A stretch of DNA of 64,000 nucleotides, taken from an uncultured Bifidobacterium sp. GTDB lineage: Bacteria; Verrucomicrobiota; Verrucomicrobiia; Limisphaerales; JADLHS01. Position numbers and translations under genes: made by a program. The stretch spans positions 14,025-78,024 of the forward strand of contig CAZLOH010000023.1 of NCBI GenBank assembly GCA_964561105.1, in the 5' to 3' direction. Of this stretch, positions 9,694 through 19,597 are shown piece by piece; position 1 is the first letter of the stretch, and each line of letters opens with the position of its first letter. Below the pieces are notes generated by a model. That model was not told where the DNA came from. It saw only the letters and a list, made by a program, of their open reading frames with translations, and ran no database searches.

Positions 9694-12600
9694 GAGTTTC
9701 TTCACCGCCTGATCCAGCCGCGCCTGTGCGTCGGCGAATGAGTAACTCTGAACGCTTTTTTCAAACTGCGGCCAGCCATCGCCAGCAAACAACGGACGCA
9801 GCGCGGCCTGATTCGTTTCAAGAAAATCCGCCGCGCTGGGGTCGAACTCCGCGAGCAACCTGGTCAACTGCGCTGCAGCCTCGCGGGATTGCGCGGGATC
9901 CACCGTCGCCGCCGGCGTCGGCGCGGGCGCAGCCGAGGCAGACGCGGCCAAGCCTAACTTCAACGCGGCCACCAACGGACCGAGCGCGGCGGCCGTCTGC
10001 TGCCTGGCTGCGTCCAGTTCGAGCGGCGAGACTTTGCCCCGGATGCCTTTCTCCAACGTGGCAGCGGCGGACTGAATTTGGGTTGCGCCGATGTTGCCGG
10101 CCACGCCCTTGAGCGTGTGCGCCAGCCGTTCGGCGAGCGCGATGTCCCCTTGAGCGAGCGCCTCGGTGATTTGCGTCACCGCCGGCCCCTGTTGCTCGAC
10201 GAACTGCCGCAACAATTTCAGATACAACTTCCGATTGCCAGCCACGCGGGCCAGGCCGTCCTTCGTGTCGAGGCCGGGAATGGTGGCGCAGGTTTCCAAA
10301 CCTGCCGTATCGCCGATTTCCAAATCGGCACTGCGCCGCACAGATGTAGCCGTCGCAGGTTGGGAAACCTGCGATACTGCAGACTTGGAAGTCTGCGCCA
10401 CCGGGGCGGCAGCACCCCCCGTCGCTCCCCTCACCCCGTCCCTCTCCCCATCGGATGGGGAGAGGGTGTCCGCAGGACGGGTGAGGGGCTTGTAAAATCT
10501 GCCCACCGTCTCGAACAGGTTCGCCGGATCAATCGGCTTGGAGATGTGATCGTTCATCCCCGCGGCGAGGCAGCGTTGTTTCTCCTCCATCGTCGCGTGC
10601 GCAGTCATGGCGATGATCGGCAGGTTCGCCAGCCGCGCGTCGGCTCGCAACCTGGCTGTGGCCTGATAGCCGTCCATGACCGGCATCTGCAAATCCATCA
10701 GCACTATATCGAACGGCGGCGGCTGCGGATCCTTGGACAAGATGTCCACGGCTTCACGGCCATTGTTGGCGACCGTGACCGTGGCCCCCGCGCCTTCGAG
10801 CAGTTCAATGGCGATCTGCTGGTTGATCTCGTTGTCTTCGGTAAGCAGGATGCGCGCGCCGCGCAGGCGCGTGGCCGATTCGCCTTCCTTGGTTGTGGCC
10901 ACAGCCTCGCCCGTTTCGGCAAACACGTTCACCAGCGTGTCCACGATCATGGACTTGGTGACGGGCTTGACGAGAAAGCCATCCAACTGCAACCGCTCGG
11001 CCTCCTCGCGGACTTCTTCACGACCAAACGCCGTGACCAGCACAATGTGCGGCGGGTGCTGCAACGTCTCGTCGCCCTTGATGTGGCGACTGGCCTGCAA
11101 CCCATCCATGCCCGGCATCCGCCAGTCCATGAACACAATGTCGTAGGGCTCGGCCGCGTCCCGCTGTTGAACGGAGGCGATGGCTTCCTTGCCCGAGGCG
11201 ACGACATCCACACGCGCCGCGATGCCAACCAGCGGTTCCTGCAGAATCTCCCGGGCAGTGGGATTGTCATCCACGATGAGCACGCGAAGCTTGGCCAGTT
11301 TCTCGGGAACGATCTTGCCCGCCCCGGTTGCGGAACTGACCCCGAGCCAGACCGTGAAATAAAACGTGCTGCCCACGCCGGGTTCGCTTTCGAGCCAGAT
11401 GCGTCCACCCATCAGTTCGACGAGCCGCCGGCTGATGGTCAGCCCCAGGCCCGTGCCGCCGTGCTTCCGGGTCGTGGACATGTCCGCCTGCGTGAACGGT
11501 TCGAATAATTTTCCCGACTGCTCCTTCGTCATGCCGATGCCGGTATCGCGCACGGCAAACTTGAGTTGCACCTTTTCCCCGGTGCGCTCGACCTGTTGAA
11601 TCTCGAGCCGGATTTCGCCCTGCTCGGTGAACTTGACCGCGTTGTTCACGAAATTGGTCAGGATCTGGCCGAGGCGCAGCGGATCGCCGAGGAGGACTTC
11701 GGGAACGCCCGCCGCCGTGTGCGCCAAAAACTCCAGCCCTTTCTCATGCGCCTTCTGCGCGGTGAGCGTGGTGACGCTCGATATAACTTCGTCGAGCTTG
11801 AAGTCCGTCGTCTCGATGTCGAGCTTGCCCGCCTCGATCTTCGAGAAGTCGAGAATGTCATTGATGATGGCGAGCAGGGACGTGCCCGCGTTGTGGACCT
11901 TGCCGACGTAATCGCGCTGCTTGGGCGTGAGTTGAGTCTTCAGCGCGAGGTGCGAGAGGCCGATGATGGCGTTCATCGGCGTGCGGATTTCGTGGCTCAT
12001 GTTCGCGAGGAACATGGACTTCATCTCGGTGGCTTCCTCGGCCTTACCCTTGGCCAGCGCCAGTTCGCGCGCCTGTTCCTGCGTCTGACCCAGCAGCTCC
12101 TGCGTGCGAAGATTCCGCAACAGCACCTCCAGACTCATTGCCGCCACGGGCAATAACTCGTCCAGCAGGGCCTGTTCGCGGCTCGTGAACGTGCGAAAAC
12201 CGGCGACCTCGAGCACGGCCAGCAACGCGTTCGCCGAGGTCAACGGGAACGCCGTGACCTGCGTGGGCGCGGCTCCACCCAGGCCCGAAGCGATGCGCAG
12301 ATAGTCCGGCGGCAGGTCCGTGAGCGTCACCGCCTTGCGTTCCCGCGCGCATTGCCCGACCAATCCATCGCCCGGTTTGAATTCGCCCGCGTCCGCCGGT
12401 TCTTCCGCAAGGCCGTACGTCGCAACACGCGACAGCCGGCCCGCCGCTTCCTCGAACGAATACAAACCGGCCACCCCGCCGCCCAGCGCGGGCATGAGGC
12501 TGACCACCAAACGTTGCCCGAAGTCGGTGAGCGAACTCGCGCCCTGCAACGCGCCGGTGATTTGCCCGGCCGTGGATTTCACCCACCGCTGCTCATCCAT

Positions 12601-13374
12601 CGCCGCCGCGCCCTGCTTCAATATCTCCACCGACCGTGCCAGCCCGCCGGTCTCGTCGGTCGCATCCGTGAAGGGAACTTCCTTGGCGTAATCGCCGGCC
12701 GCGATCGTCTTGACGGAAGCTTCGAGCGCCTGAATCGGCCGGACGATCCGTCGAAAAGTGAAGTAACCCAGGAGGGCGGTCACCAGAATGGCGCTGGAGT
12801 TGGCGACGAGCATTTTCAACCGCGAAGTCGCGATGGTGTCGGTGGTGGCTTTGGCCGCCGCATCGGCGAGTTGCTCATTGTACTGAATCCACTCGCGCGA
12901 AATGTTGCCGGATCGGGAGACGATTTCTCCCATCGAACCGTTGAGCAGGGCCAGCGCCTCCGCTTTTTGGCCCGCGGTTGCCAAGGTCATTACTTGCTTC
13001 GCGGCAGAAACGTAGTCGCGGCTCAATTCTCGGAATTCGTTGAACAATCGGCGGTCCTTCTCATCCGAGATCAAAGTGTCCGCATACAGTTGGTACAACC
13101 GGACGAGTTCGGTTCCGTCGGCATCGAACAGCGCACGCGCTTGAGTCTGTTGGAGTTGATTGGTAGTGAGCACGAAGCTGCGGACGTTGACGCGCAGTTC
13201 GGCAAAGCTCCGGGAGATATTGCCGAGCGCCGCGAGACTCCCAATCTGGGTTTCCGCCACGAACTCGTTGCGCGCTTCGATCTGTGTGAGCTGGTAGCGC
13301 GTGAAGGCGCCCAGGATCAGCAGCGCCACCAGCGGGACAGCCACCAGCAGGGTCAGTCGTTTGGCGATCGTCAT
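9682..13374 (-). CDS. hybrid sensor histidine kinase (TM/HAMP, GAF, HisKA, HATPase, two REC, C-terminal Hpt)
   Basis: [18 protein letters not shown] (H-box), N/G1/G2 boxes (VRDTGIGM...[19 protein letters not shown]), two REC domains (VLIVDDNP...; [12 protein letters not shown]...) and an Hpt region. Confidence 0.85.
10427..10488. repeat. palindromic repeat family 1 (62 bp) inserted in frame in the sensor kinase
   Basis: CCCCTCACCCCGTCCCTCTCCCCATCGGATGGGGAGAGGGTGTCCGCAGGACGGGTGAGGGG is a nested perfect hairpin. It is translated on the minus strand as ...[24 protein letters not shown]... between REC2 and Hpt. Confidence 0.7.
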
Positions 13375-13618
13375 ACCGTAATCCTCAGTTGGTCATGGCT
13401 AAAACAATCTCCGGCCGCTGCACAGCGCGCCGTTCCGGAGGCAGCATAATGACTCCGTCCCCAACTGGGGAGCACAAACACGACGGCGATTCGGGGCACC
13501 CGGCATCACTACGCGCGCTCAAGTTCACCCGGTTGGTTGCCGATTGTCCAACACAACTGCAATCGGATCGCATCCGTCCGCGCCCGCGCGAAGTGATTGC
13601 AAAATTGCACCCTCTCAA

Positions 13619-13834
13619 TAGCCACCGACGTGAGGAAGCGGAAATTCAGGAGTTCAATAGAAGGCGCGCAGGCCGCCTTTCAGCTTGCGCAACGCTTCCG
13701 CGCGCACACGGCGCACTCCCGCGCAGCGGCGGCCACGGCGTCAATCTTCGCGATGGTAGCAGCGAATGTGAGCCCGCTCTGATTTTTCGGGGAGGAAGTT
13801 TGAGCCGACTCACGTCGGCTGCTACCCGGCTCAA
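13619..13834. repeat. repeat family 2 arms in inverted orientation ~170 bp apart
   Basis: TAGCCACCGACGTGAGGAAGCGG at 13619-13641 and GACTCACGTCGGCTGCTAC at 13812-13834. The second arm sits in the loop of the local hairpin GTTTGAGCCG...CGGCTCAAAC. Confidence 0.5.
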
Positions 13835-13852
13835 ACTGCGGCCACGGGAACG
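13833..13852. repeat. 20-bp direct repeat AAACTGCGGCCACGGGAACG (left copy) flanking the R-M island
   Basis: Identical 20-mer occurs again at 16145-16164. Confidence 0.7.
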
Positions 13853-13869
13853 TGCCGCAAGCAACTCGC

Positions 13870-14832
13870 TCAGCTACCTCGTCGTGGTTTCTTGGTCGAG
13901 TGCGTTCGATACGCCGAAGAAGGTTCGTTCATCGCCATGGTTGACTCGATAGGAGTAGGTGGCTTGAGCTCGATTTGGAACTGTGCTTGACCAAATAGCG
14001 ATGTGTTCTCGTTCATGAGTCGTGACGCAGCCAGTTTGCAGTATTCAGTGTCAAGTTCGACACCAATGCTGTTTCGCCCGTGCTTCAGGGAGGCAATCAT
14101 GGTCGTGGCGGTGCCGCAGAACGGGTCCAGCACGGTATCACCTGAAAACGAAAACATCTGAACCAGACGGGAAGCCAGTTCCAATGGAAACGGAGCGGGA
14201 TGCTCCTTGGTTGAGGCTCCGGTAATTGTCCAGAACTGCTGAAACCACTTATCGAACTTGTCTTTGGAAATCATGCTCAAACGGCGCTGGTCTTCCGTCG
14301 GCTTGCGGTAACCGCCCGGTTTGCGTTGCATGAGAATAAACTCAATGTCATTCTTGATGATGGCGTTGGGCTCGTACGGCTTTCCGAGAAATTTTGAGCC
14401 GTTGCTCACCTCATAGCTGGCGTTGGAAATCTTGTGCCAGATAATCGGGTTGAGATTATCAAATCCAAGTTTGCGACATTGCACGCAAATGTCTCCGTGC
14501 AGCGGGACGACGGTGTGGCGTCCATTATTTTCACGTCGGGAAAGACAGACGTCACCCACGACACACACCAGCCGTCCGCCGGGAACGAGAACCCGGAACA
14601 CCGCACGCCACACGCGATTCAACTCCGCAAGAAAACTCTCGTAATCCGCGATGTGACCCATCTGACCGTCGGAATCGTTATAGCGTTTGAGGGTCCAGTA
14701 AGGTGGCGAAGTGACGACGAGGTGGATGGACTCGTCCGCAATGAACGACAGATCGCGCGCGTCCCCTTGCACCAGCCGATGAAGCGTCGGGACGTCATCA
14801 ATGGTTTGCGACGCAGTCCTGGAGTCCTTCAT
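13870..14832 (-). CDS. DNA methyltransferase, beta-class amino-methyltransferase (N4-cytosine or N6-adenine)
   Basis: Motif IV SPPY (LVVTSPPYWTL) lies N-terminal to motif I (VLDPFCGTATT). This is the circularly permuted beta-class order; SPPY is typical of N4C/N6A enzymes. Confidence 0.8.
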   Translation of the reverse strand: MKDSRTASQTIDDVPTLHRLVQGDARDLSFIADESIHLVVTSPPYWTLKRYNDSDGQMGHIADYESFLAELNRVWRAVFRVLVPGGRLVCVVGDVCLSRRENNGRHTVVPLHGDICVQCRKLGFDNLNPIIWHKISNASYEVSNGSKFLGKPYEPNAIIKNDIEFILMQRKPGGYRKPTEDQRRLSMISKDKFDKWFQQFWTITGASTKEHPAPFPLELASRLVQMFSFSGDTVLDPFCGTATTMIASLKHGRNSIGVELDTEYCKLAASRLMNENTSLFGQAQFQIELKPPTPIESTMAMNEPSSAYRTHSTKKPRRGS

Positions 14833-15578
14833 AACTGTTTGATGCGGCCTGAGAACGCCGCAACCTGAGCGACGAGTGAGTTCGCAAATGCCTGAAACGT
14901 GAGGTCGTTCGCCGGTTCTGAGTACACACCCTTCAGTCCTTTTTCGGGATTAGACATGAGAAAGGCAGCGGAATCGTAATGCTTTTCGAGAACCAGTCGT
15001 CGGCAGAAAAGCTCGTAGCGCTTGGCGTAGGACGAATTTCTGAACTCGGGAAACACCTTGAAGTGCGGCTCTTTCACAGCGACGGGCGAAGTGGATCGAG
15101 CGCAGTCCTCGAGGAGAAACAGGTAGCCAATCCACGGGCGCACGGCAGAACCAAAGGCGTTTTCCCGAAACGCCGTCCAGAGATCGAGCGCGCTGCCCAT
15201 TGCTTCCTCAGTGCGATTGTTGAAGTTGTTACCAAACGAAGGACCGACTTGAGATTTTGCTTCAAGCGCGGCCACAAGCTGGCCTTTCACAACGACAATG
15301 AAATCCCATTTCTTGTTTGGGCGGAAGTAGCCCGGAAGTTCCAATGACTGGTCGAAAAATATGTGTGCATGATCAATGCCCGCTTCCATGACGAGCTTTG
15401 TCAGAAGCTCGATAAAGCCATCCATCTGCGCGCCGCCTGTGACTGCGCTTCGCAATCCTTGGTCCGAGCCGCCGGCGTCACGTTGTTTTTGCAACTGGCT
15501 TGAGCGGGTTTTCCAGTAGAAGCGAACGGCTTCTCGGGCGTGCTTCGGCAAATCCGTCAATGTACTTTGATTCGGCAT
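14829..15578 (-). CDS. putative type II restriction endonuclease (size and motif recollection suggest the XhoI/PaeR7I-like family)
   Basis: 249-aa ORF overlaps the MTase start by 4 bp (ATGA). The ...RSAVTGGAQMDGF... segment resembles the XhoI-family signature from memory. No other domain is recognisable. Confidence 0.5.
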   Translation of the reverse strand: MPNQSTLTDLPKHAREAVRFYWKTRSSQLQKQRDAGGSDQGLRSAVTGGAQMDGFIELLTKLVMEAGIDHAHIFFDQSLELPGYFRPNKKWDFIVVVKGQLVAALEAKSQVGPSFGNNFNNRTEEAMGSALDLWTAFRENAFGSAVRPWIGYLFLLEDCARSTSPVAVKEPHFKVFPEFRNSSYAKRYELFCRRLVLEKHYDSAAFLMSNPEKGLKGVYSEPANDLTFQAFANSLVAQVAAFSGRIKQL

Positions 15579-16144
15579 CTACGTACTGAGTCTGACTAAT
15601 GTGGACTTGGTTCGCAAAGCCGAAGTTGCCCGAACCGCGCGCGGGATCAAGCACGCGGAAGGTTCGTATCCGGTCGCGAAATTAGAAGGTGGCGCGCTGC
15701 TTTCAGTCCACACGCATGGCCGAAGGACGCAAAGAGGTGATCGAGAAAAATCTGCGCCTCACCCTTTTCGTCGCCGGTGATGTGTCTGGCGCACCAAGTG
15801 ACGAATTCCTGAAGCATTTCCCGATTCGGCATGGCAGGGTTTTACACGAGGGCGGCGCGGGCGGCAATGACTGCGTTGATGGCGTTACGGGACAACACGA
15901 CGTTTCCCGGAGCGCAACCTTCACGTCGCTTCACGCTGGATGGCAAATGGGACGTGGAAGTGGCGTGAACGCCGCGCTCCGCAGCTCCGTCATGGGCGAC
16001 ATCTTTGTAGGGTGCGATCGTGGATTTTGATTTAGCTCCGTCAGGAACGGCATAGTCCGATGATATCGCGCCTACGGAGCTTTGGCCCATTTCTCGGACT
16101 ATTCTGCAGAGATGTCGCGCCGAACGGCCCTGGGCGAAGCATCA

Positions 16145-16164
16145 AAACTGCGGCCACGGGAACG
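16145..16164. repeat. 20-bp direct repeat AAACTGCGGCCACGGGAACG (right copy)
   Basis: Identical to 13833-13852. Confidence 0.7.
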
Positions 16165-16358
16165 GGTCGAGAACGGGTTCAAGCTGGATGCCGGATGTCA
16201 TTTCGTGCGATAGGGCGGGCCTTGCTCCTTTGCCGAATAAAAGTGCGCCGCATCCGCCTCTGCGTGTTCCGGCAGCGGCTTTCGCAACGGGGCGGGATTC
16301 GGCGGTTCATAAGGCGGATACCCAGGCGATGAGGATGGCCGAATACAATCCTGTGTCA

Positions 16359-16725
16359 TCAGTTCTGCGCGTCGGGATAATGATGGGGCACGCCAGAGGC
16401 GATGACGAGTGAGCCTTTCTCGAAGTTCGCTGCGACTTCGAGGTTCTTGGCGAGGAGTTGGGCGAGCAAATTCTTTTTTGGCGCTGAAGCCGTAGGTGGC
16501 TCGCTTCGTAGAGTAATCTGTCAGGGTAGCTAACTCCCCACTGCCGATGCCACCCCACGGGGCGAGGACGGCAGCATCCGCGAAGCGGTGCAGCGAGACT
16601 GTTGTTCTAACTGTGTCCAGCGCGGCGTGGGCGTCCTTGAGCGGATTCGCGCCGGGCAGTTTGCCGTGCAGATTAAGCTGGAAGATCGCTCGCATTTCAA
16701 AATTCCAAATCACGGCATTTGTCAT
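16359..16725 (-). pseudogene. small hypothetical gene interrupted by a +1 frameshift at an A6/T6 homopolymer (last gene of the NYN-NERD operon)
   Basis: Frame 1 reads MTNAVIWNFEMRAIFQLNLHGKLPGANPL...YGFSAKKEFAR, then low-complexity. A protein-like continuation NLLAQLLAKNLEVAANFEKGSLVIASGVPHHYPDAQN* appears in the +1 frame after the ttttttg run at ~16473-16479. Confidence 0.3.
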
Positions 16726-17590
16726 CGAGTGCTGCGACGATGCGCTGCACCTGGGAGGCTTCTAACTTCGTCCCTTGGCCACGCAAGTACTTCGTGAGAT
16801 AACCGGCATTCATCACCTTTACCGGGAAGTTACCTTTGGTCTCAACATACCAACCGGGAATCGTGACTACTGCTTCGACCAAGACGGATTCCGCCGTGCG
16901 CTTGGATAGGAATTCCGACAGCCAACGAGCATTGCGCTCCGCCTGCGGGATGGTTTCAGCATCATACCCGCGGGGAAAACCCAGCCCTTTGCCATCGTAA
17001 GCGACAACGTGTTCTGGTTTGCCGTTACGGCTCCCGCGCCGGCGCCGGGCCTTGGTTTCAATCACAAATACCCCCCGAACGCCCACTGCAATGTGATCAA
17101 TATTGCCAATCTGCTCCTCTACCAAGTCGTGAAAAATGCGATAGCCTGCGTCAGCAGCCTCGTGCAAAGCCTCGGCCACCGCTTGCTCTCCCCGCAGACC
17201 GAGCCGAACATTGCGCCCTTCATCCAAACTGCGGAAGGCACGTAACACCTGCCACGCTCCCAAGCCTGCCAGCACTGCAAACAGTGCCAGTGCCAACGCC
17301 GACCACGCCGCAGGAACGTTATTGCCCAAAAACAAGCCTAGCGTAAGAGCGCACACTCCACCCGCTAAGCAAAGCGAACACGCCAGGAGAAGTTGGCCCA
17401 AAATCCGGTCCTGTAGGTTCTCAAGCCGGATGCCAAGCGAGTGGCCCGCTGGCCGCAACAGTTTCTCTTGCTGCGGCGGCTTCTCCCGGTGGCTGGCACC
17501 ACGACGCTCGATAAACCAGGCGACCAGGAACACCAGCAGGGGAACAAAGCTGGCAAGCACGATTGAAATGGTTCCAGAATCAAACTTCAT
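16697..17590 (-). CDS. membrane-anchored NERD (nuclease-related domain) protein
   Basis: Two to three N-terminal transmembrane helices are followed by the NERD signature GEQAVAEALHEAADAGYRIFHDL...IDHIAVGVRGVFVIETKA. Confidence 0.75.
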   Translation of the reverse strand: MKFDSGTISIVLASFVPLLVFLVAWFIERRGASHREKPPQQEKLLRPAGHSLGIRLENLQDRILGQLLLACSLCLAGGVCALTLGLFLGNNVPAAWSALALALFAVLAGLGAWQVLRAFRSLDEGRNVRLGLRGEQAVAEALHEAADAGYRIFHDLVEEQIGNIDHIAVGVRGVFVIETKARRRRGSRNGKPEHVVAYDGKGLGFPRGYDAETIPQAERNARWLSEFLSKRTAESVLVEAVVTIPGWYVETKGNFPVKVMNAGYLTKYLRGQGTKLEASQVQRIVAALDDKCRDLEF

Positions 17591-18168
17591 AGGTGGTAAA
17601 AGACTTCGCCATCCGCCCCGATCTCGATGACTTTCTTTGCGACCAACCCTTGGATAGTGCTATGCAGTTCGGCTGGTGTGAGCGCTCTTCCAAACAAAGC
17701 GTGGATTTGTGATTCCAAGGTTGTGCGCTTTTTGGCAAGCGTTACCTGTTTGGACTTAAAGTACGCGATGATGTGATTGACCCGCTCGGCATTTTTCATC
17801 AGCACTGGGACTTCGCAAAAAGCTGCACGCCGGGCGGCGAGCGTGCCGTTGGCTTGGAAATGACCGATCAACGCGTCAAAATCCTTATCTTTGGAGATGA
17901 TGTGAAAATAGCCATGTGCGTCCACTTGCTTTGCCGCGCCAATACACTGCGCGAGCACCAGATCCAAGGCATTCTTACCGCTCCGCCCGGTTTCCACCAA
18001 GTCCACTTGTCCGGCGTACTTGAGCAGCAGCTTTACCAAGGCGACCGGAAGGTTCTTATGCCGTTCACCCAAGACAAACGTTACCTTGACTGGCTTGTTG
18101 GCAATTCGATCCAGATCAATTTCCTGAACATTTTCAAAATCAATGAAGATGTAGTTGGTGCGGGCCAT
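17587..18168 (-). CDS. NYN (LabA-like / PIN-related) ribonuclease-domain protein
   Basis: NYIFIDFENV, SGKNALDLVL and IISKDKDF match the acidic motifs of NYN/LabA domains. A ~70-aa C-terminal extension follows. The gene overlaps the NERD gene by 4 bp. Confidence 0.6.
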   Translation of the reverse strand: MARTNYIFIDFENVQEIDLDRIANKPVKVTFVLGERHKNLPVALVKLLLKYAGQVDLVETGRSGKNALDLVLAQCIGAAKQVDAHGYFHIISKDKDFDALIGHFQANGTLAARRAAFCEVPVLMKNAERVNHIIAYFKSKQVTLAKKRTTLESQIHALFGRALTPAELHSTIQGLVAKKVIEIGADGEVFYHL

Positions 18169-18189
18169 TGGTTCACGTAGCTGTTGGTT

Positions 18190-18207
18190 TGATACAATCC
18201 TCCGTCA
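18190..18207. promoter_or_regulatory. 18-bp motif TGATACAATCCTCCGTCA upstream of the NYN-NERD operon
   Basis: Exact repeat of 19418-19435; lies 22 bp upstream of the NYN start codon on the coding (minus) strand. Confidence 0.35.
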
Positions 18208-18467
18208 TCAAGCTGTGATGGTAATCGCGCGAGGATGGTTCATTACTTTCATCTCAAAATCAAGCATCCTCATGCTGGTTTGACCAACTCCATCCGTTTT
18301 CCGCGGCGGCCATTCCCGCTTCGATAAAAAAACTTCCGTGCATTTCCGCGCCCGTGGTCAAAAAGCTGCCCTGGTCATCAAGCCCGCAATCCATCCGGTC
18401 TGGCACGGTTTTGATTCCTTTGGTGGTGGTTGTCTGGCTGGCGACTAATGATGCGGTCTGGGAGAAT

Positions 18468-18911
18468 TCATCGCGGTGCAACTGGTGACGGTGCGGGCAC
18501 AAGTCCATGTTTAAGCAGGACCGTGTTCAACTTCTCAACATCGGGCGGCCCGCCGACATTCACGATGGTCGCCGCCTCTTCGAAGAAATCCGGGCCGAGG
18601 AGAGCCGGCGTAATGACGGCCAGTGCCTTCACCGCGGCCGGCTTCAGATTGTTGAATCCATGAACCGCTCCGCGCGGAATGAAGCAAGTTTGCCCCGGCC
18701 CGATGTCCACCGCCTTTCCCTCCACCGTGAACGTTAACACGCCTTCCACTCCGTAAATGGTTTCGTCGTATGCCTTGTGATAATGGGGCGCCGGCACCTT
18801 CGCTCCAACCGGCACTGTGAATTCAAACATCGCAACCGCGCCGTTCGTGTCGGCCGCTTCGAGCAGAAATCGGATGCCGATTTGCCCGACGCGGATGATT
18901 TCGGTTTTCAT
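18468..18911 (-). CDS. cupin-domain protein
   Basis: PHYHKAYDETIYGVEGVLTF...PRGAVHGFNN is a two-His/Glu cupin beta-barrel motif. Confidence 0.7.
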   Translation of the reverse strand: MKTEIIRVGQIGIRFLLEAADTNGAVAMFEFTVPVGAKVPAPHYHKAYDETIYGVEGVLTFTVEGKAVDIGPGQTCFIPRGAVHGFNNLKPAAVKALAVITPALLGPDFFEEAATIVNVGGPPDVEKLNTVLLKHGLVPAPSPVAPR

Positions 18912-18922
18912 CCCGGTTCTAC

Positions 18923-19393
18923 TCACTGGAGCGGCGGCCCGACGAACTCGATTCCATATTCCGCCGCGGTGGCCTTCAACGCCTGCAGGGCGTCGTTGGA
19001 TGGCAATCCGGCCGGCTTTGGCAGTTCCAGGCGTTCCGCCGGGCGGCCCATCGCACGCACGAATCGTTCAAAATCCCCGCGTCCGGTAATGGTCAGACAG
19101 CGGCCTCCCTGTGGCGATTCGACCCGGTAAGTGTGCGGCACGCTTTTCGGCGCGAGCACGATGGTGCCGGGGCCGGCCCGCTGTTCCTGGTCCTGGACCT
19201 TCAGACGGTACTCGCCGTCCAGGACGTGGAACAACTCATCCTCGGTGCGATGAAGATGAAAAGGCGGCGAAGAACCATACGGCATCCGATGCTCAAGGAC
19301 CGAGAGGCCATCCGTGCCTTCCGCAGTGGACACACGAATCGTGACCAGCGAGTCGAGAAACCAGAGTGGATTGGCTGAGTCAGGATTGGTCAT
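18923..19393 (-). CDS. cupin-domain protein
   Basis: PPFHLHRTEDELFHVLDGEYRL...PKSVPHTY cupin motifs. Confidence 0.7.
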   Translation of the reverse strand: MTNPDSANPLWFLDSLVTIRVSTAEGTDGLSVLEHRMPYGSSPPFHLHRTEDELFHVLDGEYRLKVQDQEQRAGPGTIVLAPKSVPHTYRVESPQGGRCLTITGRGDFERFVRAMGRPAERLELPKPAGLPSNDALQALKATAAEYGIEFVGPPLQ

Positions 19394-19417
19394 GCGTTTA
19401 CTCCGTCATGTTGGGCC

Positions 19418-19435
19418 TGATACAATCCTCCGTCA
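19418..19435. promoter_or_regulatory. 18-bp motif TGATACAATCCTCCGTCA upstream of the cupin operon
   Basis: Exact repeat of 18190-18207; lies ~25 bp upstream of the cupin start codon. Confidence 0.35.
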
Positions 19436-19597
19436 CCAGTATCTGCGCGTCGAGATAATTCTTGGGCACGCCGGGGGCGGTGACGGTTGGATGCGCACAT
19501 CCAGACTTTCACTGCCGGCGACAATGACAACAACGATTTGCACTTGATCCAACTACACGTCGGTCGGCTTCGAGACGGTCGTATTCGGTGACACCGC

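Follow-up and report, generated by a model that had tools for sequence, protein, structure and literature searches.

The subject of this analysis is a pair of adjacent minus-strand genes in a 64,000-nucleotide stretch of DNA from an uncultured Bifidobacterium sp. (placed by GTDB in the Verrucomicrobiota; contig CAZLOH010000023.1 of assembly GCA_964561105.1), which we refer to as the window. Both genes encode predicted nucleases: the first belongs to the PIN7 family, and the second is a NERD protein with N-terminal transmembrane (TM) segments, here called TM-NERD. All positions are those of the window, and loci and proteins from other sources are cited by our working numbers (e.g., L003 and P0257). 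The two genes, and the protein lengths in amino acids (aa), are as follows.

17587..18168, minus strand: gene 1, PIN7-family protein, 193 aa; residues ~1-125 form a NYN/PIN-like nuclease fold and residues ~126-193 a winged helix
16697..17590, minus strand: gene 2, predicted membrane-anchored NERD nuclease, 297 aa (Pfam NERD, PF08378, E=3.5e-15)

Gene 1 had originally been described as a NYN-type RNase with acidic motifs and a C-terminal extension. We found that its formal family is PIN7 (PF18475), which it matches over the entire model (positions 1-103 of 103, 70.6 bits against a cutoff of 34, E=1.9e-19) and which all of its close homologues carry; its score against the LabA-like Pfam NYN family (PF01936; 16.9 bits, E=0.0096) falls under the gathering cutoff of 24.2. 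At the level of the fold, the description holds. The protein has the three-layer alpha/beta fold and the conserved acidic cluster of the NYN/PIN-like nuclease superfamily, and the C-terminal extension folds as a winged helix in an AlphaFold2 model (predicted local distance difference test [pLDDT] score of 88). Across 40 homologues (56-83% identity, nearly all 193 aa long), D10 and E12 of the IDFENV motif, D69 of GKNALD, and S92, D94, and D98 of SKDKDFD are invariant. Gene 1 differs from the NYN RNases of the MARF1, LabA-like, and YacP (Rae1) groups in falling below the Pfam NYN threshold, in belonging to the separate, uncharacterised PIN7 family (clan PIN), and in its C-terminal domain, a generic winged helix that was not assigned to LOTUS/OST-HTH. 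The gene 1 product is probably a cytosolic metal-dependent nuclease, and more specifically an endoribonuclease. A Foldseek search of the PDB with the gene 1 model found no significant whole-chain match, and a profile search of PDB sequences with PIN7 returned only a chance-level match to CodY. PIN7 is a large family, comprising 3,379 clusters at 50% identity (E<=1e-3), mostly of 190 to 260 aa. In the plasmid and phage collections that we searched, only distant homologues were found, in uninformative backbone regions. These proteins (25-33% identity), annotated as "PIN domain-containing protein," are carried by large conjugative plasmids of Cupriavidus, Providencia, Klebsiella, and E. coli (plasmid records H2-H20, e.g., NZ_CP033968.1, NZ_AP018396.1, and NC_003905.1), with DUF2726 and H-NS genes nearby.

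The earlier reading of gene 2 as a NERD protein with two or three N-terminal TM helices was borne out. Its PF08378 match is above threshold, and the D...(D/E)xK motif of PD-(D/E)xK nucleases is intact, with D165, E178, and K180 (IDH...IETKA) invariant in 46 homologues. Three hydrophobic segments (residues ~7-27, 64-88, and 94-116) form long helices in the AlphaFold2 model (pLDDT 89). The loop between TM1 and TM2 carries the motif EKPPQxEKLLRPxGxSL (residues 36-52), which is likewise invariant in the TM-NERD homologues, and relatives of 30% identity in L017 and L019 keep it as RRPAGYSLQE. Because the loop motif is kept even in relatives this distant, the membrane part of TM-NERD is likely more than a mere anchor. 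The positive-inside rule would place the NERD domain in the cytoplasm; the TM1-TM2 loop is likewise predicted to be cytosolic. There is no helicase domain in the 297-aa protein, which sets it apart from NERD-UvrD (Nhi-like) proteins, in which NERD is fused to a superfamily 1 (SF1) helicase. Neither protein drew anything useful from NCBIfam or PHROGs.

The original prediction placed these genes in a tightly coupled operon of three, joined by ATGA overlaps, and this is true of the first junction, where the start of gene 2 overlaps the PIN7 stop by 4 bp (ATGA, 17587-17590). The second junction is of a different kind. The NERD stop lies at 16699-16697 and the next ATG at 16695, while a longer open reading frame (ORF) starts at 16725 with a 29-nt overlap, and this third ORF, as described below, is not an operon gene. 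The unit has two genes, not three, and the ATGA overlap would allow PIN7 and NERD to be co-expressed.

We surveyed the neighbourhoods of both families, using 80 genome loci from a GTDB scan plus L003 for PIN7 and 80 metagenome loci (39-85% identity) for TM-NERD. Among the immediate same-strand neighbours of PIN7, NERD is the commonest Pfam family, accounting for 14 of 108 (12/62 upstream and 2/46 downstream), and no other Pfam family occurs more than three times; an approximate Fisher test, which ignores phylogeny, gives a p value of ~1.6e-12. Nearly all of the NERD matches that a local hidden Markov model (HMM) detected in ~1.1 Mb of PIN7 flanks directly adjoin PIN7. The linkage takes at least four architectures and both gene orders. 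Short NERDs of 212 to 235 aa lie 28 to 41 bp upstream of PIN7 in Verrucomicrobiales, NERD-UvrD fusions make up three of the upstream matches (L026, L034, and L040), relatives of TM-NERD lie upstream in L017 and L019 and downstream in L003 and L047, and a Sulfurovaceae genome (L053) pairs PIN7 with a NERD carrying a zinc ribbon. Other PD-(D/E)xK nucleases (DUF2726, Mrr, and the Shedu protein SduA) also serve as partners, and a NERD or other PD-(D/E)xK neighbour is present at ~20-25% of PIN7 loci. In a neighbor-joining tree of PIN7, 13 of the 19 members of one clade have such a partner directly upstream; the clade to which the window's own PIN7 belongs is mostly without one.

The specific order of PIN7 and then NERD, joined by an identical 4-bp overlap, recurs in L003, L167, L172, and L173. 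Of the closest PIN7 relatives, P0003 and P0005 (80% and 78% identical to the window PIN7) carry a NERD gene overlapping by 4 bp, and in L084, which is cut at its 5' end, the 3' part of PIN7 lies 6 nt upstream of NERD. Collectively, these data identify an association between PIN7 and NERD that is real, recurrent, and facultative. The exact arrangement seen in the window occurs only within one small lineage of Verrucomicrobia, in which it stands behind an MmeI gene.

Our preferred reading, to which we assign a probability of about 0.5, is that PIN7 and TM-NERD are a defence-related nuclease pair, able to cooperate, in a small, low-GC, horizontally acquired defence islet (13.4-19.5 kb) that holds the decayed remains of an MmeI-family type IIG locus. 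The case for a defence role is one of bioinformatic association, and several observations count against it. The neighbourhood statistics take no account of phylogenetic non-independence. Roughly three quarters of PIN7 loci have unrelated neighbours, often housekeeping or metabolic genes, and close relatives of the window PIN7 occur without NERD (P0011 at 74% identity, L004-L006 at 69%, and L168-L171, within the range of 69-74%). A PIN7 gene is found at 1 of the 80 TM-NERD loci (L084), so that the claim of co-conservation across genomes stands for the strong enrichment of NERD beside PIN7 and fails for an obligate pair: the two genes do not co-occur in most genomes that have either. PADLOC-DB v2.0.0 contained no match at E<=0.1 to PIN7, NERD, or the third ORF. 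The loss of the MmeI and ASCH-like genes described below could signal that the cassette is itself decaying. Finally, HEC-09, a MARF1-like NYN candidate, gave no protection in defence assays (Payne et al. 2024, bioRxiv 10.1101/2024.01.29.577857).

Some of these observations would fit a different explanation, in which PIN7 and TM-NERD would each work alone as a one-gene module and merely happen to be neighbours, having been stacked by repeated cassette accretion behind an MmeI-type gene, at its 3' end, with a 4-bp overlap that reflects only compaction. The 79 TM-NERD loci without PIN7 favour it, as do the many PIN7 homologues (the majority) that stand alone and the size of the PIN7 family, whose members are mostly single-gene-sized proteins. 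It accounts less well for a NERD-specific enrichment that is seen in two phyla, in either gene order, and with NERD proteins of several architectures, or for ATGA coupling that is kept in at least four further loci. We regard mere adjacency as somewhat unlikely. In our preferred reading the two can probably cooperate, while each protein is at the same time a module in its own right, since the two families are mostly found apart.

The history of the cassette is recorded in the DNA around it, where the following features were found, all on the minus strand.

13639..13857: MmeI tail relic (FPWPQ ... VRRVRAEALRKLKGGLRAFY, then stop), just downstream of the methylase gene; tblastn with P0257 and P0267, 77-81% identity over 26 aa; direct repeat D5
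13870..14832: N4/N6 DNA methyltransferase, with a 4-bp overlap with the restriction endonuclease gene (Pfam N6_N4_Mtase E=2.2e-40; PADLOC MTase_II E=1.5e-64)
14829..15578: XhoI-family type II restriction endonuclease (Pfam XhoI E=1.3e-89; PADLOC REase_II E=2.5e-95)
15586..15681: relic of MmeI-family methyltransferase (MTase) motif I (LDPARGSGNF) (tblastn with the L122 MmeI, E=2.6e-4; local MmeI HMM, E=2e-4)
15965..16180: MmeI tail relic, FPWPQ motif and the insert that follows it (tblastn with P0267 residues 23-94, 56% identity, E=1.8e-16)
16201..16662: pseudogene of an MmeI-family type IIG C-terminal tail, the "third ORF" (frameshift-merged search; tblastn with P0257, E=8e-23)
16666..16725: 5' stub of an ASCH-like gene, ~20 codons (tblastn with the 101-aa ORF of L003 matches residues 1-20 only)
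18173..18235: MmeI C-terminal relic (..SSRDYHHSLMTEDCIKPTAT, then stop), identified by translation and as repeat family D1; its stop is 4 nt before the PIN7 ATG, and it contains the 18-bp copy at 18190-18207
18468..19393: two cupin-domain genes (Pfam Cupin_2 E=1e-15 and 2e-14)
19398..19487: MmeI C-terminal relic (TVTAPGVPKNYLDAQILVTEDCIRPNMTE, then stop), with its stop 4 nt ahead of the start codon (ATG) of the cupin operon and the 18-bp copy at 19418-19435

The third ORF had been reported as a small gene broken at a homopolymer. The break is real, a +1 frameshift in an A6 run at 16474-16479; the supposed gene is an ASCH-like stub followed by an MmeI tail relic. We considered whether it could be a frameshifted ASCH-like gene, which is intact (91-105 aa) beside TM-NERD in L003, L167, and ~12 metagenome loci, and rejected this candidate: similarity to the 101-aa ORF of L003 ends after ~20 codons, and the rest is MmeI tail. 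DNA similarity to L003 and L084 stops ~30 nt past the NERD stop. The ASCH assignment is itself weak (Pfam E=0.004-0.01), and a profile search of PDB sequences with the ASCH-like gene gave no match. When joined across the A6 run, the third ORF matches more than 200 proteins, aligning as MmeI-family type IIG C-terminal tails with the landmarks ELPGANPLKDAHAALD...YGFSAKKDLLAQLLALN...PGVPKNYPDAKKLVTEDCIKP; several of these proteins carry Pfam MmeI_TRD or MmeI_C. The middle segment of 16201..16662 aligns to P0257 in a different frame in tblastn. A second shift, of -1 near 16363, compensates for the first, and the 175-aa ORF therefore remains open by accident.

The third ORF, the 18-bp repeat described below, and other fragments in the window are thus homologous to the MmeI_TRD/MmeI_C tails of MmeI-family type IIG enzymes. 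These enzymes at full length have N-terminal, helicase-spacer, MTase, TRD, and C-terminal domains, whereas the window holds eroded, frameshifted fragments of the C-terminal tail and one fragment of motif I, and lacks a functional MmeI gene. At 15647-15832, an ORF looks like an MmeI N terminus, but by eye only. The MmeI protein of L003 has no significant match in the window, since it and the relics come from different MmeI subfamilies. In tail relics from several metagenomes (P0242-P0252; 16483-16617 in the window), the conserved DAHAALD-AAVL-AAYGF motif is interrupted by two in-frame insertions, of 13 aa (TVRTTVSLHRFAD) and ~22 aa (APWGGIGSGELATLTDYSTKRA), and all four combinations of presence and absence are found.

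The same debris explains an 18-bp motif that the original prediction had noted ahead of gene 1 and of a neighbouring operon. This motif, TGACGGAGGATTGTATCA, is an exact repeat at 18190-18207 and 19418-19435, where ~0.04 matches would be expected by chance, and it does precede both operons. It is MmeI coding debris and not a regulatory element. The MmeI tail ends in (V/M)TEDCI, and these are the residues that the repeat encodes; at 16337-16363 there is a third, degenerate copy. A role as promoter, operator, or ribosome-binding site was rejected: besides its coding origin, the motif is absent upstream of PIN7 in other organisms, and a simple sigma-70 scan at the motif found no minus-strand promoter.

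At both exact copies, the relic ORF stops 4 nt before the next ATG, that of PIN7 (18168) or that of the cupin operon (19393). Counting the degenerate copy, three direct copies of the last MmeI codons (19398-19487, 18173-18235, and 16337-16407) bracket the cupin pair and the PIN7-NERD pair. These positions suggest that cassettes were stacked serially behind an MmeI-type gene, at its 3' end, through recombination in which the tail was duplicated. The cupin pair is probably functionally unrelated to PIN7-NERD; that it is bracketed by the same relics indicates that unrelated cassettes collect at this site, a further point in favour of independent modules. The layout of L172 matches that of the window, with an MmeI 3' end, a 197-aa gene, a 28-aa tail relic, PIN7, and NERD. 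In L142, a TM-NERD gene (373-1263) lies between two copies of the MmeI C-terminal tail (2-346 and 1333-1581; 81% and 57% identity to P0267), a clear instance of the tail duplication that the window shows. The XhoI-type restriction-modification (R-M) pair of the window is flanked, in the correct gene order, by the MmeI motif I relic (in the segment 15586-15832) and the "FPWPQ...VRRVRAEALRKLKGGLRAFY" relic (13639-13857). The R-M pair (13870-15578) appears to have taken the place of the core in one MmeI copy.

The gene order in the closest relatives is an intact MmeI-type gene, a 197-aa gene, PIN7, TM-NERD, and the ASCH-like gene. Because of this order, we read the pair in the window as an accessory cassette that would once have shared an operon with an MmeI-type enzyme and was later left without it. 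The ASCH-like gene is present at 14 of the 80 TM-NERD loci, and a full MmeI-type gene lies upstream of TM-NERD in every ASCH-containing locus that has sufficient upstream DNA. A related layout is conserved in L099, L102, L117, L121-L123, and L129, in which TM-NERD comes after an ASCH-like gene of ~93 aa that is itself preceded by a variable gene and, before that, an MmeI-type enzyme; TM-NERD is partnered by the ASCH-like gene more commonly than by PIN7. The 197-aa gene of L003 and the 220-aa gene of L122 have no detectable similarity to each other.

The islet has a base composition of its own, with a GC content of 54-57% over ~13.4-19.5 kb against ~60-63% in the surroundings, and is flanked by genes of the PSD/DUF1552 type. 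Its intact survivors are the XhoI-type R-M pair and the two-gene PIN7-NERD operon; an R-M system next to the pair, as originally reported, is indeed present, 1.1 kb from the cassette. We weighed this setting against a housekeeping or DNA-uptake role, in which the membrane NERD would handle DNA taken up in transformation or take part in nucleic acid turnover and the NYN protein would carry out RNA processing of the Rae1/YacP kind. Some PIN7 homologues do lie among housekeeping genes. The distribution is sporadic even among close relatives, the island is low in GC, adjacency to R-M, Shedu, and other defence genes is repeated, and no housekeeping synteny is conserved, all of which make this role very improbable.

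Defence genes recur around PIN7 elsewhere. Its neighbours include PADLOC matches to NERD+UvrD (C3a187), SduA, PD-T4-1, PDC-S36, PDC-S43, HNH, and R-M components, and NERD and PIN/NYN nucleases are already known as components of defence islands. In L003, a 437-kb JGI contig, an MmeI gene lies upstream of the PIN7-NERD-ASCH cassette, and ThiF (E1-like), Multi_ubiq, and DUF1883 genes lie beside it on the downstream side (10272-13649); this group may be a ubiquitin-like defence module.

The small size and tight coupling of the gene pair, together with its patchy, mobile-like distribution, would also be expected of a toxin-antitoxin (TA)-like or addiction cassette, in which one nuclease is a growth-arresting toxin that the other restrains, stabilising the island. 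PIN-fold proteins are the classic TA toxins, as exemplified by VapC, which lends this idea a precedent. VapBC loci have a small antitoxin gene upstream of a PIN toxin of ~130 aa. At the window locus there is no antitoxin-like ORF; the 300 bp upstream of gene 1 hold an MmeI relic, and gene 1 combines an NYN-type fold with a winged helix. The pair is without a small antitoxin-like partner, both proteins retain complete catalytic motifs, and each gene usually occurs without the other, which an obligate pair of toxin and neutraliser would not tolerate. We therefore consider a TA-like cassette improbable.

Among characterised or proposed defence systems, the nearest to gene 1 is HEC-09, which also combines an NYN-like nuclease with an HTH-type domain in, or attached to, a restriction-like defence locus. 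HEC-09 is a single gene with the HTH at the N terminus and NYN at the C terminus, whereas gene 1 has the opposite domain order. Gene 2 shares its NERD PD-(D/E)xK domain, the (D/E)xK signature, and a defence-island context with HEC-02, NERD-UvrD (PADLOC C3a187/Nhi-like), the N-terminal NERD of PglW, and ZwsA. Unlike these proteins, it is without an ATPase, helicase, kinase, or S4 domain and instead has three N-terminal TM helices, an invariant cytosolic loop, and a PIN7 partner. Of these systems, HEC-02 (an ABC ATPase plus NERD; Payne et al. 2024, bioRxiv 10.1101/2024.01.29.577857) and the NERD RNA endonuclease ZwsA (bioRxiv 10.64898/2026.04.06.716636) have been validated in defence. The literature that we searched contained nothing on PF18475, on a pairing of NERD and NYN, or on a link between MmeI and NERD, and together with the PADLOC result this agrees with the earlier statement that the pairing was not recognised as a named defence system.

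From this context we infer the defence function, the substrates, the cooperation, and any trigger of the pair. In the model that we favour, both proteins would act as accessory or second-line defence effectors that degrade nucleic acids. TM-NERD would be a three-pass inner-membrane nuclease, with its active site in the cytoplasm and placed where foreign nucleic acid enters, and the cytosolic NYN-winged-helix protein would, on being triggered, cut RNA. If active, the pair would constitute a defence module of two different nuclease folds, one of them membrane-tethered, and would provide the first functional handle on the large, uncharacterised PIN7 family. The locus also illustrates how accessory defence genes can pile up right behind MmeI-type restriction genes. 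The start of a cassette 4 nt after a copy of the MmeI stop could serve as a "guilt by attachment" signal for new defence genes.

A broader and more speculative proposal, which we put forward only tentatively and think rather unlikely, is that PIN7 with a swappable PD-(D/E)xK partner (short NERD, TM-NERD, NERD-UvrD, DUF2726, Mrr, or Shedu-type) makes up a widespread, unnamed two-gene anti-phage system. It would have been recruited in Verrucomicrobia as an MmeI accessory operon, with the MmeI 3' end acting as a recombination anchor for stacking and exchanging defence cassettes.

Identical contigs are present in two Logan runs. In these, an 82-aa ORF (18260-18508, minus strand) is annotated ahead of PIN7; it is probably spurious, since no family matched it and it overlaps a cupin gene at that gene's end.

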